Origin: Candidatus Iainarchaeum sp.
GTDB taxonomy: Archaea; Iainarchaeota; Iainarchaeia; Iainarchaeales; Iainarchaeaceae
Assembly: GCA_016202305.1 (NCBI GenBank)
Contig: JACQPB010000039.1
Span: 6,661 to 70,660, forward strand
DNA length: 64,000 bases
Direction: 5' to 3'
The translations under genes were made by a program, and so were the position numbers. Shown in pieces: positions 20,414 to 54,821 of the stretch. Numbering within the stretch: position 1 is the first letter of the stretch; every line of letters starts with the position of its first letter. Under the pieces are notes generated by a model that made no database searches, had not been told where the DNA came from, and worked only from the letters and a program-made list of their open reading frames with translations.

Positions 20414-21691
20414 ATGAAAGAATACAACCTCGACCTGCAAATCCACGGAAAATACGCCGGCGGAGTCAGCAAGAACATGGAAATACCGACAATGGCAGAG
20501 CAGGCAAGGCTCAAGGGCCTCGACGTGCTAGTGACCGGCGACATACTCCACGCGAAATGGGCCGAGCACGTGAAGAAAAGCATCGAAGAGGAAAGCAACG
20601 GCATTTACCGCGACAGGGAAGGCAAGTGCGGCTTCATAATCGGCGGCGAAATAGAGGACAACAAGAGGATACACCACCTCTTCTACATGCCATCGCTCGA
20701 AAGCGCGCAGGAATTGCGCGGAAAAATCCTCGGAACAGGGGCATTAGACTGCGTGATGTGCGGGCGCCCGAAACTCAGGCTGACAGCAGAGCAGTTCGCC
20801 GAGCGCGTCCATGATGCAGGAGGCATATTCGGGCCGGCCCACTCGTTCACCCCTTACACCGGAGTATACGCATTCTTCGACTCCCTGAAAGACGCCTACG
20901 GAGGAATGCACAGGCACCTGAGCTTCATAGAGCTCGGGCTTTCGGCTGACACCGACATGGCCGACACCATTTCGGAAAACCACGGCTACTCGTTCCTGAC
21001 AAGCAGTGATGCACATTCGCCCTGGCCCAACCGCATAGGGCGCGAATTCATGCGCACGAAAATGGACGAGCCAGGATTCAATGGCCTCAAGAAAGCCTTC
21101 GCGGACAGGGAAGGCGGCACGATAACGCTCAACGCCGGCCTCGACCCGCGCGAAGGCAAGTACCACTGCACGGCATGCAACTCGTGCTTCTCGAAATACT
21201 CGATGGCGCAGGCGGAGCAGGCAAAATGGAAATGCCTGAAGTGCGGCGGCCCTGTCAAGCGCGGCGTGCGCGACAGGATTGCGATGCTCGCGGACACGCC
21301 CGAAGGGAAACACCCCGCATTCAGGCCGAAGTACATGCACCTGCTCCCGCTCGCGGAAATAATACAGCTCGCCACCGGCGCGAAAGGCGTGCAAACCAAG
21401 GCCGTGCAGTCGCGGTGGATAAGCGTCGTGGAAAAATTCGGGAACGAGATAAACGCGCTCGTGGACGCAAAGGAAAGCGAACTGATTGAAGCCGACAGGG
21501 AAGTGGGGGAAAACATAGCGGCATTCAGGAAAGGCCTCGTCCTCTACATACCCGGAGGCGGCGGAGAATACGGCAGGCCAATAATATGCCGCACGCAGGA
21601 AGAGCTCGAAAGGAAGAAAAACGAGCTGAAGAAAGAGCTGAGCGGGATATCCGAAATAGCGCAGCAGAGCACGCTGGGCCGATTCGCGTGA
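20414..21691 (+). CDS. PHP-domain/zinc-finger protein of the endonuclease Q (TIGR00375) type
   Basis: DLQIHGKYAGGVSK…, GPAHSFTPYTG, ELGLSADTDMAD, SSDAHSPWPNRIGREF, NAGLDPREGKYHCTAC…WKCLKCGGPVKRGVRDRI, as I remember them from Pyrococcus EndoQ. Confidence 0.65.
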   Translation: MKEYNLDLQIHGKYAGGVSKNMEIPTMAEQARLKGLDVLVTGDILHAKWAEHVKKSIEEESNGIYRDREGKCGFIIGGEIEDNKRIHHLFYMPSLESAQELRGKILGTGALDCVMCGRPKLRLTAEQFAERVHDAGGIFGPAHSFTPYTGVYAFFDSLKDAYGGMHRHLSFIELGLSADTDMADTISENHGYSFLTSSDAHSPWPNRIGREFMRTKMDEPGFNGLKKAFADREGGTITLNAGLDPREGKYHCTACNSCFSKYSMAQAEQAKWKCLKCGGPVKRGVRDRIAMLADTPEGKHPAFRPKYMHLLPLAEIIQLATGAKGVQTKAVQSRWISVVEKFGNEINALVDAKESELIEADREVGENIAAFRKGLVLYIPGGGGEYGRPIICRTQEELERKKNELKKELSGISEIAQQSTLGRFA

Positions 21692-21757: not shown

Positions 21758-21982
21758 TTAATGACCCAAGGCACTCCTAATTTTACGCACAAGGAGATCA
21801 TCCCAAGCGGCCCCTTTAGAGTTGAGCATTTGCACTATTTGCGCATCAGTTATTTGGCCACGTTTACCTTCCAATTCTGAAAAAACTTTGCCAGCTATTC
21901 GCAGGGTATTTTCCGAATACGGGTCGCCATGCTCATACTTGTCCTCTCTGGCCCTTTGGAATCTGGGATGAGGCAAAGGCAT
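21758..21982 (-). CDS. small hypothetical protein (74 aa from MPLPHPRF…)
   Basis: Internal ATG with GGAG 4 nt upstream. The longer 149-aa reading has an implausible N-terminus. Confidence 0.3.
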   Translation of the reverse strand: MPLPHPRFQRAREDKYEHGDPYSENTLRIAGKVFSELEGKRGQITDAQIVQMLNSKGAAWDDLLVRKIRSALGH

Positions 21983-22260
21983 AAAACTCCGTTGAATATA
22001 CGTATTTCCAGAATTTAAGCTTATTGCGGGCCTTATGGCCTTCAGGAACCCGCCCTTCCGGCCTTGCCTGCATTTCACGCCCCCGGAACCGGAAAAAGAA
22101 TTTGCCGAGCATTGGAACCAAATTTTCGGAAAATTCGGAAAAGGGAAGAAGAAAAATGAATAAACAGTGCAGCACCAAAAGCCTGTTTGCCATCCCACCA
22201 AATGCAATATGCCCCACGGAGCGGGGATTTACCAACCGCGCGGGAGCGCAAATATGAATG

Positions 22261-22342
22261 TGTTATGTAGAAGTCAGCTATACGACGATTTTTGACAGGC
22301 CAGTAGCGGAAACCGACAAGAAAACACCACTTCTACATAACA
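22261..22342. repeat. perfect 14-bp inverted repeat with a 54-nt spacer
   Basis: TGTTATGTAGAAGT (22261-22274) and ACTTCTACATAACA (22329-22342). Confidence 0.8.
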
Positions 22343-22479
22343 GCATCTTGTTCGGGGCAGGCCAACACAAACCCGTGCAACACCAACCCGCCAAAAAAAC
22401 ATGGCATGCCCAACACACGGATAACCAAGGGCCGCACTGGCGGCATCAAGGCCCTGAAACTATATAGCAGTTAAGGGCT

Positions 22480-22584
22480 GTTGGTGACATCAAGGTGCAA
22501 GCTGGTGACAAGCGAAACCAGGTTGGTGACATGAAAATGTGCGCTAGTGGCAAAAAAGGCCCATTTCACGGAGCGCTGGTGACA
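22480..22584. repeat. iteron-like array: five G(C/T)TGGTGACA-type boxes, four of them at exact 21-bp spacing
   Basis: Cores at 22482, 22503, 22524, 22545 (variant TAGTGGCA) and 22577. Only the ~10-nt core is conserved. An A+T-rich stretch (CTATTATAATATGATGATTT) follows. Confidence 0.7.
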
Positions 22585-22848
22585 AATCTGCTATTATAAT
22601 ATGATGATTTCCTGTTAACGTGCAGCGGAAAAAAAGCCGTGAAAAGAGGCCAATTATTCTCCCGCTCCGCACACGATTTTACAACGCTCCAACAGCACGG
22701 AAACAGGGAAAACGAAAGCTGCGGCTCTGTGGCCAAAATAGAAGCGGCGCCTTCCCACCAGCCGGCATTCAGGAAAAAAGAATCGGTTGGCACATAAATC
22801 AGGCGCTACTAGCGGCCTTCGGACTTGTTCTTTCCCCGCTTTATTACT

Positions 22849-23094
22849 TTACGCGCTACTCCCTTTAGGGCGGCTGGGATATTTTGAACCAGGGTACGGA
22901 GTACTAGCCTTAAGTGCATTTATAGGTGTTTTTGAAAGCTGGACAATCAGGCCTTGCTTAGTGCGTTTGATTTGTTTTATTGGGAGCATAACTTTTTTGC
23001 CTTTGGCCGTTACATATGGCACATTAGGAGAAATACGCAAGCGCCTAGGAGTGCCCTTAGGAACTACATGGGCAGGGGGTTTCGTAGGCTTCAT
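22849..23094 (-). CDS. hypothetical very basic Lys/Pro-rich protein (81 aa)
   Basis: The ORF starts 31 nt downstream of the PAC2-like gene on the same strand. It could instead be a shadow of the overlapping plus-strand ORF. Confidence 0.3.
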   Translation of the reverse strand: MKPTKPPAHVVPKGTPRRLRISPNVPYVTAKGKKVMLPIKQIKRTKQGLIVQLSKTPINALKASTPYPGSKYPSRPKGSSA

Positions 23095-33673: not shown

Positions 33674-34237
33674 TCACCTAAGGGAATACTCCGTCGAAAC
33701 CTTCCTCGTTTCCGCGTCCCCTGTAGTAGGGTCGCGCAATGCGCCGTCTATGAGGTGAAGCGGCTTCCTCGACCTTATCCCGAAAGCCTTTATCACGCCG
33801 AACTCCGCGTCCTTTGTTTCAAGCTCGATGCCGTAAGGCGCCACCTGAATGATGCGGGCCCTTATTATGTCGCCAATCCTGAACATTTCATCAGTGCTGC
33901 GCACATACCCGTTAGCAATGTTGAACACGGCGAGCGAACCGTTCCTGTCATGAACGACTCTCTTCACGCCGTCCTTCTCCGCGCTTTTCAGCTCCACGAG
34001 CACCGCATTCTGCTTGACAAGCGTCACTATTCCAGTCACGGTGCAACCTCGCTCAAGGATACGCACCTCACGCGTCGACTTTCGTATGCCAGCCTCATGA
34101 TTGGCCTCATCGACCTCTGGAACGCCGATAACCTCGGAATAAACTGCACCATCATTCTCGAAAGCGTGCTTTCCGGCCATGAACTCCTCTTCATAGCCGA
34201 TGAAACTGCCCGGATAGACGATTGAACCCTTCTTCAA
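33674..34237 (-). CDS. csl4: exosome RNA-binding subunit Csl4 (S1 domain; Cys-less C-terminal ribbon)
   Basis: …IVYPGSFIGYEEEFMAGKHAFENDGAVYS…GCTVTGIVTLVKQNAVLVEL…FNIANGYVRSTDEMFRIGDIIRARIIQV…. Confidence 0.75.
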   Translation of the reverse strand: MKKGSIVYPGSFIGYEEEFMAGKHAFENDGAVYSEVIGVPEVDEANHEAGIRKSTREVRILERGCTVTGIVTLVKQNAVLVELKSAEKDGVKRVVHDRNGSLAVFNIANGYVRSTDEMFRIGDIIRARIIQVAPYGIELETKDAEFGVIKAFGIRSRKPLHLIDGALRDPTTGDAETRKVSTEYSLR

Positions 34238-34316
34238 AAAAAATCCCCCAAAAACAGGTTATAGAAAAGAATCTCCCCCAGAAATGTATTTAAACCACTA
34301 TGGCTGTCTTGCTTCT

Positions 34317-35291
34317 ATGGTACTGGAATCCATACTTGACCTTCAAAAGGCCGAAAAACACCCATATTACCTGTTTTTTGCATCATTCGCCATTTCCAGC
34401 ATAGCGATGTTCCTCGCCTACAAGACCTTCCCGAACAGCAGCTCCGTCCTCGCCATAGAGCTGGTGACCGTGGCCTTCATGCCAATAGTGCACAACCTCT
34501 TCATAAAAGAGGAAGAGGAAGAAGCCATGCCGCTTGAGGACACGCCTTTCGCCTTCATAACCAAGCACTTCAACGTCATACACATATTTGGGTGGATATT
34601 CCTGGGCATGGTGTTCACCTACACATTCTGGGCCACTGTACTGCCAGAAACCCACGACAACTGCACGGGCATAACCTGCGAACTGCCCCCGAAAAGCCTC
34701 ATCTTCGAGGAGCAGCGGAAGGTATACACCGGCATAACAGGGAATGCCACTATCGGCAGCGAGCAATGCTTCAGCGACGAATCAAGAAGCTTCGGCGACT
34801 GCTTCATGTTCATCTTCACCAACAATGCATGGGTCATGTTCCTCGCCATACTGTTCTCTTTCATATGGGGCGCCGGCGCAATCTCGCTCCTCAACTGGAA
34901 CGCCTCCGTGATAGGCCTCTTCATCGGCACGGAAATAATAGGCAAAAGCCTCACCGCCGGCCTCTCCCGCGCACTCAGCTACCTGCCTCACGGCCTCCCG
35001 GAAATAATAGCGTACTTTGTCGCCGCAATCGCCGGCGGAATACTGTCCGCGGCAATCTCGAAACAATCCTTCGCGAAGGACGAGATAAGGCTTGTGCTCA
35101 TAGACACGTTCTTGCTCGTCGTGCTGGCCTCGGTCACGCTGTTCATAGCCGGCTTCATCGAAGCCGCGGGAATATTCGGATACTGGGAAGCGGCTGGCGC
35201 GGGAGTGATAGCCTTTTTCGCGCTCTACGCGATGCTCTACCTGCCTTCAGTAGGGAAGCGCATAGACACCGTCAGGAGAATCAATCTCTGA
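34317..35291 (+). CDS. SpoIIM-like (DUF95) integral membrane protein
   Basis: Six or more TM helices and …LSYLPHGLPEIIAYFVAAIAGGIL…, characteristic of the family. Confidence 0.5.
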   Translation: MVLESILDLQKAEKHPYYLFFASFAISSIAMFLAYKTFPNSSSVLAIELVTVAFMPIVHNLFIKEEEEEAMPLEDTPFAFITKHFNVIHIFGWIFLGMVFTYTFWATVLPETHDNCTGITCELPPKSLIFEEQRKVYTGITGNATIGSEQCFSDESRSFGDCFMFIFTNNAWVMFLAILFSFIWGAGAISLLNWNASVIGLFIGTEIIGKSLTAGLSRALSYLPHGLPEIIAYFVAAIAGGILSAAISKQSFAKDEIRLVLIDTFLLVVLASVTLFIAGFIEAAGIFGYWEAAGAGVIAFFALYAMLYLPSVGKRIDTVRRINL

Positions 35292-53657: not shown

Positions 53658-54821
53658 CTACGCCTTCTGAAGAAGCGATTCAATCTCCTTCAGCAGGAAA
53701 TTCCCCGGAACCAGCGAGGAATACTCCTTGGTCTTCCCCCTGTTCCCGAGCGTCACCGACTTTCCGGCCACGAGGCCGCGCTTCTCAAGAGTGGAAAGAA
53801 TGGTGCGCAGGCGCCTCTCCTTCAGGGCGCCGGAATCAGAGCCGGAATAAGAATCGTAAATGCTTCCCGAAGTCATGGGCTGCCTCTCCGCTATTATCTT
53901 CAGCAACCTCAACTCATCCTTCTCCAGGTACTTCAAAGACTTGAGCATAGAAACCGCGTCGACATCATCGAACGCCTGTCTCAGGTGCACGGTGCCGACA
54001 GCCTTGGAGTTGGAACGCTCCGCAATCCTCCCTGCCTTCAGCAGCGATTCGAGCGCAACCCTGGCATCACCGCCCAGCCTGGCGGCATGGGCCGCGGCAA
54101 CGCCTATGACTTCAGCCGGCAATGCGCCCTTCGCAAAGGCCAAAACGGCCCTTTCGGAAAGAATGGCCTTCAGCTGCTCCGGCGAATACGACTCGAAAAT
54201 AACCGCCTCTTCGGTAAGCGAGCTCCTTATGCGGGAATCGAGCCTCGAAACCAGGGAAACGTCATTCGAAATCAGCACCAGGCCTATGTGCCGCTTCTCG
54301 TACTCCATCACGCGAAGGAGGTCGTAAAGCAGCTTAGCGTTTGCCTCTGAAAGAAGAATCTGGTCCACCTCGTCAAGCACCACAACAGGCGTGAACCCGC
54401 ACTTGCGCAGCGACTCAAGCATGTCATTGAATATCTCGTCGGTTGCGAGGCCGCGTCGCGGAACCGCGGAGCCGAGGAAATTCGCAATCGCGCTGAGGAC
54501 GGACACACGCGAATTGTACTCGAAACAGTTGAGGTAAAGGCTTTTCACCGAGCCTGACTCCTCCTGAAGCTCGCGCAGGACATACTTGGCGCACGCGGTC
54601 TTCCCGACGCCTGTCGGGCCAGCGAGGAAAACATTCAGCGGCTTCCTGCCCGCGAGGAGCGGCTCGAAGCAGTACGCGAGCGACTTCAGCGCCTTATCCC
54701 TGAAAGGCAGCTTTTCCGGAATGAAATCCGGATACAGAAAACGCTCGTCGAGGAAAATCCCGTGCTCCCTCACCTGCGCCGAAAACAGTTTTCCCATGAA
54801 TAAGTGTATGCCATTTGCCAT
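53658..54821 (-). CDS. cdc6: Orc1/Cdc6 replication initiator
   Basis: …LYPDFIPEKLPFRDKALKSLAYCFEPLLAGRKPLNVFLAGPTGVGKTACAKYV…VVVLDEVD… plus a C-terminal winged helix (…TILSTLEKRGLVAGKSV…). Confidence 0.9.
   Translation of the reverse strand: MANGIHLFMGKLFSAQVREHGIFLDERFLYPDFIPEKLPFRDKALKSLAYCFEPLLAGRKPLNVFLAGPTGVGKTACAKYVLRELQEESGSVKSLYLNCFEYNSRVSVLSAIANFLGSAVPRRGLATDEIFNDMLESLRKCGFTPVVVLDEVDQILLSEANAKLLYDLLRVMEYEKRHIGLVLISNDVSLVSRLDSRIRSSLTEEAVIFESYSPEQLKAILSERAVLAFAKGALPAEVIGVAAAHAARLGGDARVALESLLKAGRIAERSNSKAVGTVHLRQAFDDVDAVSMLKSLKYLEKDELRLLKIIAERQPMTSGSIYDSYSGSDSGALKERRLRTILSTLEKRGLVAGKSVTLGNRGKTKEYSSLVPGNFLLKEIESLLQKA

Follow-up and report, generated by a model that had tools for sequence, protein, structure and literature searches.

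A dispersed, lineage-specific non-coding cassette with helically phased direct repeats and a promoter-like element in a Candidatus Iainarchaeum genome

We analysed a 64,000-nucleotide stretch of Candidatus Iainarchaeum sp. (contig JACQPB010000039.1, positions 6,661 to 70,660 of the forward strand), which is called the window below and corresponds to C23:6661-70660. The labels C1 to C56 denote the contigs of this genome (G000), which is 1.04 Mb in size, lies in 56 contigs and is about 80% complete. A non-coding cassette that is dispersed in the genome and lineage-specific has one of its copies at positions 22217-22717 of the window. Four cassettes with unique flanks were found in the genome (C23:29140-29377, C16:114005-114310, C17:10379-10679 on the minus strand, and C56:3284-3584), and each consisted of 5-10 phased boxes, an element resembling a B recognition element and TATA box (BRE/TATA), and a segment of about 110 nt, called R. 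Two upstream modules, L and S, which hold an inverted repeat, were common to the C23 and C17 copies. Our preferred reading of the cassette is a tentative one, with a probability that we put at about 45%: it may be a phased operator or activator array joined to a core promoter for a short non-coding transcript, a unit which would have spread as a lineage-specific repeat in one DPANN species.

The boxes of the window copy were located as follows.

22436-22445, plus strand: degenerate distal box ACTGGCGGCA (family D2)
22480-22489, plus strand: box 1, GTTGGTGACA, 112 nt ahead of the TATA element
22501-22510, plus strand: box 2, GCTGGTGACA, 91 nt ahead of the TATA element
22522-22531, plus strand: box 3, GTTGGTGACA, 70 nt ahead of the TATA element
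22543-22552, plus strand: box 4, variant GCTAGTGGCA, 49 nt ahead of the TATA element
22575-22584, plus strand: box 5, GCTGGTGACA, 17 nt ahead of the TATA element, abutting the BRE position

The exact pattern GYTGGTGACA occurred four times in the window compared with 0.16 expected, and none of 100 shuffles reached four. The initial annotation of this DNA had described five boxes, the first four of them 21 bp apart, and had proposed a genome search for further copies. The five boxes and their spacing were confirmed, the positions given at that time marking the TGGTGACA core, 2 nt inside the box, and the genome search found four arrays. Across the genome the pattern gave 21 matches and its reversed control 2. 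Of the 21 matches, 18 lay inside these arrays, which outside C23 were placed at C16:114005-114170, C17:10513-10679 (minus strand) and C56:3284-3447. The number of boxes per copy was 5-6 in C23, 8 in C16, 8 in C56 and 9-10 in C17, with the distal boxes degenerate.

The 31 boxes of the four arrays gave the consensus gcGYTGGTGACAWRAAAR. Conservation of the 8-nt core was between 81% and 100% per position (T 29/31, G 27/31, G 30/31, T 29/31, G 31/31, A 25/31, C 31/31 and A 31/31), with G6, C8 and A9 present in 31/31 boxes. The core is followed in the box unit by six A-rich positions (WRAAAR), and the last three positions (16-18) were random. The spacers had been described as unrelated to one another; they are variable, but they are A-rich after the core and fall into three recurring types, and the unit types agreed in most of the four copies.

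Box spacings in the window were 21, 21, 21 and 32 nt, with a further 44 nt to the degenerate distal box in C23. All four copies carried boxes 17, 49, 70 and 91 nt ahead of the TATA element, the four proximal units being at identical positions, and the longer arrays had extra boxes at about 112, 133, 153 and 173 nt. Over all arrays, consecutive boxes were 20-23 nt apart, with 32 nt before the last box. The helical phase was constant across the array, including the 32-nt (three-turn) last step, and all boxes lie on one helical face. The near-invariant core and the variable spacers argue for protein binding, and the conserved core, free spacers and fixed phase together look like a protein-binding array, unlike a recent tandem duplication. 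This agrees with the first description of the boxes as iteron-like protein sites that are neither a tandem duplication nor a clustered regularly interspaced short palindromic repeat (CRISPR) array. The latter was rejected on the repeat unit, which is 21 nt with a 10-nt core and not an identical repeat of 24-40 nt. A true CRISPR array was seen at C7:56-455, with at least six copies of the 37-nt repeat GTTGCGGGGCCTGAATCGACAGAACAAGGACTGCAAC and cut by the contig start; it is unrelated to the cassette, and its spacers are unlike the cassette by eye.

A second set of phased boxes was observed at C10:34752-34816, where three (A)TGTTCAC(A) boxes (TGTTCACA), 22 bp apart, lie directly upstream of a divergent helix-turn-helix-like gene (34184-34753, minus strand) and adjoin a tRNA-like sequence. 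This trio, the second phased box array in the genome, is probably an operator. Its position at the promoter of a helix-turn-helix gene was counted as support for reading the cassette boxes as a phased operator or activator array.

The boxes are followed by an A+T-rich tract, as the initial annotation had reported; it was found to be CTATTATAATATGATGATTT at 22591-22610. The following element was scored at this place.

22586-22601, plus strand: BRE/TATA-like core promoter ATCTGCTATTATAATA, promoter-profile score 8.6

The promoter profile was built from this genome's own upstream regions, using 716 long open reading frames (ORFs). The A+T content of the 716 upstream regions peaked 31 to 24 nt before the ATG, which suggests that many mRNAs are leaderless, and the learned profile was AAAAA-(C/G)-TTTWWAAA with a usual start 37 nt before the ATG. 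On the plus strand the cassette tract scored 8.6; the best scores of real genes had a median of 3.8, with 8.3 as the 75th percentile. By this measure the tract is a promoter-like element at about the 75th percentile of the scores of real genes, and the transcription start is predicted near 22620-22625. In the alignment, the BRE/TATA-like element was invariant in three copies and carried a TA insertion in C16. The last box ended 7 nt before the TATA element.

Leftward from the tract, GGGCCTTTTTTG, with runs of T6 and T7, was found within about 40 nt, followed by T6 runs in A-type box units; rightward, no run of at least five T was met before the end of R or later. Because only the rightward path avoids early T runs, the sequence context would settle the direction of transcription as rightward. 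In C16, R is directly followed by T5 and T7, and then by a separate promoter of the pilin gene.

The third part of the cassette is the R module.

22608-22717 (C23:29268-29377), plus strand: R module, conserved non-coding, candidate transcribed region of about 110 nt, four copies in the genome

R is non-coding and conserved. Identity was about 90-94% for most pairs of copies and about 80% for two pairs that involve C17, where a compensating -1/+1 indel accounts for the lower value. Conservation ended at a sharp common 3' boundary at GGAAAACGAA. The copies have no common reading frame, since they differ by 1-nt changes in an A run and by other indels. A leaderless 82-aa GTG ORF at the predicted start (22620-22868, plus strand) was rejected because its frame is broken in C16 and C56, and R is therefore read as non-coding. 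In C17, the -1 and +1 indels, 17 nt apart, restore the frame of the GTG ORF (IILPLRTRF.NAP.ARKQGKR) and lengthen a hairpin (AAGGCC/GGCCTT).

R had no match in Rfam 15 at the gathering score, where the only match in the window was a tRNA-Ile gene, and up to an E-value of 10 there were only chance-level C/D-box matches. Two known RNA classes were tried on the alignment by eye and rejected: a C/D-box RNA starting from ATGATGA has no D box and its motif abuts the TATA element, and an H/ACA-like reading of the hairpin fails both the pocket-to-ACA geometry and the C16 copy. We infer that R is an RNA.

The modules upstream of the boxes, together with the inverted repeat that they hold, were located as follows.

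22217-22280, plus strand: L module, 64 nt (GGAGCGGnGATTTaCCAACCGnGCgGGAGCGC...GTTATGTAGAA...), containing the left inverted-repeat arm, five copies in the genome
22261-22274, no strand assigned: left arm of the inverted repeat, TGTTATGTAGAAGT
22281-22435, plus strand: S segment, CA-rich, ending in CCAAAAAAA, shared with C17 and partly with C19
22329-22342, no strand assigned: right arm of the inverted repeat, ACTTCTACATAACA, a copy of TT[CA]TACATAA[TC]AG

Copies of L were found in C23, C17 (97% identical), C28 (86-89%), C19 and C42. In C28, C17 and C19 a short hairpin, TTATGTAG-N-CTACATAA, closes L, with a T run after it in C17 and C19. S was 85% identical to its C17 counterpart over 80 nt. 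The perfect 14-bp inverted repeat described in the initial annotation was reproduced, with 14/14 positions complementary and 54 nt between the arms, and it is kept in the C17 paralogue. The start of S is duplicated in C23 and C17, which gives rise to the long-range inverted repeat. L, S, the box array and R occurred in differing combinations at 7 loci; in C19, L and S stand without boxes upstream of the genes for a 98-aa protein, which has a winged-helix look by eye and no Pfam match, and a V4R-domain protein. The inverted repeat thus forms a repeat module of its own, outside the box cassette proper.

Both arms are copies of the 13-nt motif TT[CA]TACATAA[TC]AG, which had 9 exact copies in the genome compared with 0.09 expected. 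Its sites, which include C32:10863-10875, C56:2274-2286, C22:5284-5296, C22:48444-48485 and window 22331-22343, are mostly intergenic and often have a T run after them. Two near-copies, 30 bp apart, were seen upstream of a gene pair in C22 that ends in orc1/cdc6. The motif contains TACATA, which is the EarA site of Methanococcus (PMC10665913), a match that we for now take as a 6-mer coincidence.

An IS66-family element or its footprint adjoins or interrupts L in C28, C42 and C19. This element was rejected as a part of the cassette, since it is a separate repeat that abuts L modules and not box cassettes. A 140-nt sequence was 100% identical at the contig ends C28:1-141, C26:1-141, C42:20371-20509 and C19:33789-33927 and abutted L in three cases. 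It is an IS66-family terminus, as the homologous region in the relative G017 has a frameshifted DDE_Tnp_IS66 gene, and the element breaks the assembly. A 20-nt footprint of the same family was seen at C19:31340-31360, between ATGCACC direct repeats.

The search of related genomes returned the cassette from this genome only. With blastn, the 504-nt element gave no match in 40 relatives. When 23 genomes of the family were searched with a covariance model built from R, the four own copies were the only matches, save one weak match in a coding region that we regard as spurious. The two-box pattern had no match in the 195 other genomes of the order or the 214 other genomes of the phylum, with zero control matches.

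Two of the insertion sites were compared with congeners. The spacer between the MJ0043-like and PAC2 genes is about 1.4 kb long in the host genome. Among six congeners (PAC2 orthologues 71-76% identical), the two genes converge 6-20 bp apart in two, one small unrelated ORF lies between them in three, and the MJ0043-like gene is not there in one. The rpl12/Lon-like spacer was 102-476 bp long in four congeners and held no cassette. The initial annotation had suggested comparative alignment of the region and conservation of the boxes as a check on the origin that it proposed, and conservation was not borne out, since the cassette is missing at both syntenic sites and in the 214 other genomes of the phylum. 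Its absence from relatives and from the syntenic sites marks it as a young, lineage-specific insertion that has spread to at least four sites.

Collections beyond the phylum also held nothing related. Exact-pattern scans of Joint Genome Institute (JGI) metagenome contigs gave first no match and then two unrelated ones, and nothing related was found in the plasmid and phage collections. In viral contigs R had no match, and the boxes gave only sequence-unrelated iteron arrays; several phage contigs carry non-coding GGTGACA arrays with 21-22-bp spacing, which are unrelated to the cassette in sequence. A three-box pattern run over the genome contig collection matched mostly coding repeats. Consecutive non-coding phased arrays with three kinds of boxes, about 21-22 bp apart, were seen at L082:5690-5960 (DAHVIE010000014.1, a Thaumarchaeota metagenome-assembled genome) and in L027 (CAWCYD010000003.1, an uncultured archaeon). 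They contain three copies of GGCTTGACA, at least seven of GGTGACA and two of GGTGCCAAAT, are unrelated to the cassette in sequence, and lie upstream of an ORF with a GHKL-ATPase domain, near a DDE_3 transposase gene.

An alternative to a regulated transcription unit is a selfish or relic mobile repeat, either a non-autonomous element or an integrated fragment of plasmid or virus control DNA, whose boxes would bind the element's own initiator, repressor or recombinase and which would have no role in the cell beyond side effects on its neighbours. Confinement to a single species in a set of 215 genomes of the phylum, absence from the two congener sites, whose flanking genes stand 6-176 bp apart or enclose other small ORFs, the location of three of the four copies in convergent spacers, and the modular build, with L, S, a variable box array and R in mixed combinations at 7 loci, all speak for it, as do the GGTGACA arrays of the phage contigs. 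However, no copy has a transposase, integrase or rep gene beside it, terminal inverted repeats, target-site duplications and a common left end are lacking, and nothing related was found in the viral, plasmid, phage and JGI sequences. The strong conservation of the core and the exact box-to-TATA distances argue instead for a function still in use. We consider the selfish explanation unlikely, but one to be taken seriously.

The initial annotation had taken the region as a candidate origin or a replication/partition site, and this call was not upheld. The cassette occurs in four copies, is absent from relatives, has no initiator or parB-like neighbour and no TTCC, lies mostly between convergent genes, and carries a 20-nt tract that is promoter-like. 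Origin recognition box (ORB) and mini-ORB repeats have the conserved motifs TTCC and GAA, and the Methanothermobacter origin holds many 13-bp mini-ORBs (PMC1904270). The 31-box consensus is without TTCC, and GAA is present in some spacers only. A weak ORB likeness had been pointed out for boxes 3 and 4.

That the four cassettes are chromosomal origins, recognised by Orc1/Cdc6 through a divergent ORB-like box, we judge to be very improbable. It is true that GGTGRCATGAAA is weakly like the GTGGAAATGAAA part of ORBs, that archaea with multiple origins are known, and that no better candidate competes, as no canonical ORB cluster turned up at any other place in this genome of about 80% completeness. 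On the other hand, a Cdc6_C search found two orc1/cdc6-like genes, C22:49370-50632 and C23:60318-61481 (window 53658-54821, minus strand), and neither adjoins any of the four cassettes. The association with orc1/cdc6, rep or parB-like genes that had been suggested as a check was thus not found at any copy. The boxes are without exception direct repeats and stand to one side of the tract, and no inverted ORBs flank an unwinding element. Cumulative GC skew, another of the checks suggested at first, showed no extreme at the C23 or C16 copy, although skew is weak evidence in archaea. An origin is unlikely in view of the lack of positional conservation at the congener sites, the convergent setting of three copies, and the presence of the cassette in four near-identical copies with no initiator genes. 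The cassette resembles the ORB and mini-ORB origins of Sulfolobus, Pyrococcus and Methanothermobacter in its clustered short repeat, which could bind a winged-helix protein cooperatively, and differs from them in the missing TTCC...GAA core, orc1/cdc6 neighbour, inverted arrangement and positional conservation.

The orc1/cdc6-like gene at window 53658-54821 is divergent, with a Cdc6_C score of 23.6 bits (below the cut-off), and stands beside a gene that by eye resembles the one for the large subunit of replication factor C. A TnpB-like fragment was seen by eye about 270 bp upstream of it.

In theta-replicating plasmids such as pSC101, R6K, P1 and F, iterons lie about 21-22 bp apart and have a conserved core, variable spacers and an adjoining A+T-rich tract. 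The cassette could accordingly descend from an extrachromosomal replicon, as a captured iteron-type site for replication, partition or incompatibility at which an initiator or ParB-like protein binds the boxes and acts on the A+T tract. Iteron replicons classically show direct repeats 20-22 bp apart beside an A+T-rich tract, and the conserved core, the variable spacers, the box number varying from 5 to 10 between copies and the lineage specificity all fit. In contrast to plasmid iterons, the cassette has no adjoining rep gene, and no rep, par or orc gene was found beside any of the four copies; it is also chromosomal, present four times, and in an archaeal host. The tract is only 20 nt long at 85% A+T, which is short for an unwinding element. 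The best 40-nt window reached 72%, and the best 60-nt window between 21690 and 22850, which lies outside the tract, reached 67%. The tract moreover fits the promoter profile of the genome, and the conserved R, of ordinary composition, gets no role in this model, which we find improbable.

In a broader version, one initiator would serve all four cassettes as iteron-type origins or as control sites derived from origins, either in a DPANN chromosome with multiple origins or in a captured replicon, with phased direct repeats in place of ORBs and R as a priming or copy-control RNA. This version we regard as very improbable.

Under the preferred reading, the cassette core (about 22436-22717) would be a regulated transcription unit. 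The directly repeated GYTGGTGACA boxes would be occupied in head-to-tail order by a sequence-specific DNA-binding protein, most likely with one monomer or subunit per box. The boxes share one helical face, at intervals of two turns and, before the last box, of three. With the last box 7 nt ahead of the BRE/TATA element, the protein would be in a position to help or block the recruitment of transcription factor B (TFB) and TATA-binding protein (TBP), and we infer activation in preference to repression. Transcription would run rightward from about 22620-22625 through R and yield a short non-coding RNA. The inverted repeat belongs to the L and S modules, which are built around the 13-nt motif and only sometimes joined to the box cassette.

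Several results weigh against this reading. The tract scored about equally on the two strands (9.0 on the minus and 8.6 on the plus strand), leaving the direction unsettled by the profile. Folding of R against shuffled sequences gave only a modest signal on the plus strand (z = -2.4; minus strand z = -0.9), and RNAalifold found one covarying pair of 28 in four copies that are too alike to test structure. No consistent terminator was found after R in C23 and C56. Pfam searches of the neighbours and of the winged-helix-like/V4R pair in C19 gave no lead to a binding protein. The placement of three of the four copies between convergent genes is expected of tolerated selfish-DNA insertions, and the missing terminal inverted repeats and target-site duplications count here as well.

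A precedent for the preferred reading is given by archaeal activators whose sites closely precede the BRE. Both EarA, at the fla promoter of M. maripaludis, and Ptr2, at M. jannaschii promoters, have repeated sites upstream of the BRE/TATA element, with the proximal site within about 10 nt of the BRE (PMC10665913). The cassette likewise has short repeated sites directly upstream, its last box ending 7 nt before the TATA element. It differs from these promoters in its 5-10 direct repeats with strict two-turn spacing over 110-200 bp and in driving a non-coding unit that is present in four copies.

Pneumococcal BOX elements are intergenic and consist of boxA, a variable number of boxB and boxC, with a 45-bp structured sub-unit. 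The cassette is similar to them in having conserved end modules around variable tandem sub-units, in its intergenic position and in its lineage specificity. In contrast to BOX, it has only four copies, a 21-bp unit that looks like a protein site and a built-in promoter-like element, and it is unrelated in sequence and belongs to another domain of life.

The surroundings of the cassette in the window contain archaeal-type replication and translation genes (GINS, primase, PAC2 and aIF2-alpha). The gap that bears it extends from the MJ0043-like gene, which ends at 21691, to an 81-aa ORF at 22849-23094. The left gene had first been called EndoQ-like; its end was retained, and it is labelled MJ0043-like here. 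Two orphan ORFs lie in or beside the gap.

21758-21983, minus strand: orphan ATG ORF of 74 aa (149 aa from an upstream TTG), without a Pfam match or homologue
22849-23094, minus strand: orphan basic ORF of 81 aa, adjoining the cassette on the right and lying downstream of the PAC2-like gene

The 74-aa ORF had no homologue among 5.8 billion proteins and no Pfam match, and was missing from the syntenic regions of the congeners. It is probably no real gene, or else lineage-specific. The earlier view that no convincing gene lies between 21691 and 22849 thus stands. One congener has a 92-aa ORF at this position, to which the 81-aa ORF bears only a weak resemblance.

Both flanks of the locus were reproduced at 99.9-100% identity in two independent Logan assemblies of other runs. 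Both assemblies break at 22269 and 22676, the exact onset of repeated sequence. The flanks are present in Logan contigs of the runs SRR12113385 and SRR12113390.

The neighbours of the four cassettes are MJ0043-like and PAC2-like genes, rpl12 and Lon-like genes, genes for a PilB-like ATPase and a pilin, genes for a small membrane protein and pilin-like proteins, and orphan ORFs without a Pfam match. The C17 copy sits in the convergent rpl12/Lon-like spacer. The C16 cassette lies between the PilB-like ATPase gene and the pilin gene and faces the latter, and the C56 cassette converges on a pilin-like operon. Two of the four cassettes are therefore at type IV pilus loci, an association that may be due to chance. 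The secretion ATPase beside the C16 cassette (C16:111497-113794, minus strand), of the PilB/FlaI type, contains an apparent intein, its translation reading by eye TGHDG, directly followed by CLTGESK and then by endonuclease-like sequence.

With these results, the tempting but unsupported origin call is removed from the annotation. To our knowledge, almost nothing is known about gene regulation and small RNAs in DPANN archaea, and the cassette is a compact, testable unit, with a 10-nt box in strict helical phase, a promoter-like element and a conserved non-coding segment about 110 nt long. As selfish DNA, it would illustrate the spread of promoter-bearing repeats in a reduced genome. If it is transcribed, it would represent a young, species-specific family of regulated RNAs, with two of its copies at type IV pilus loci.

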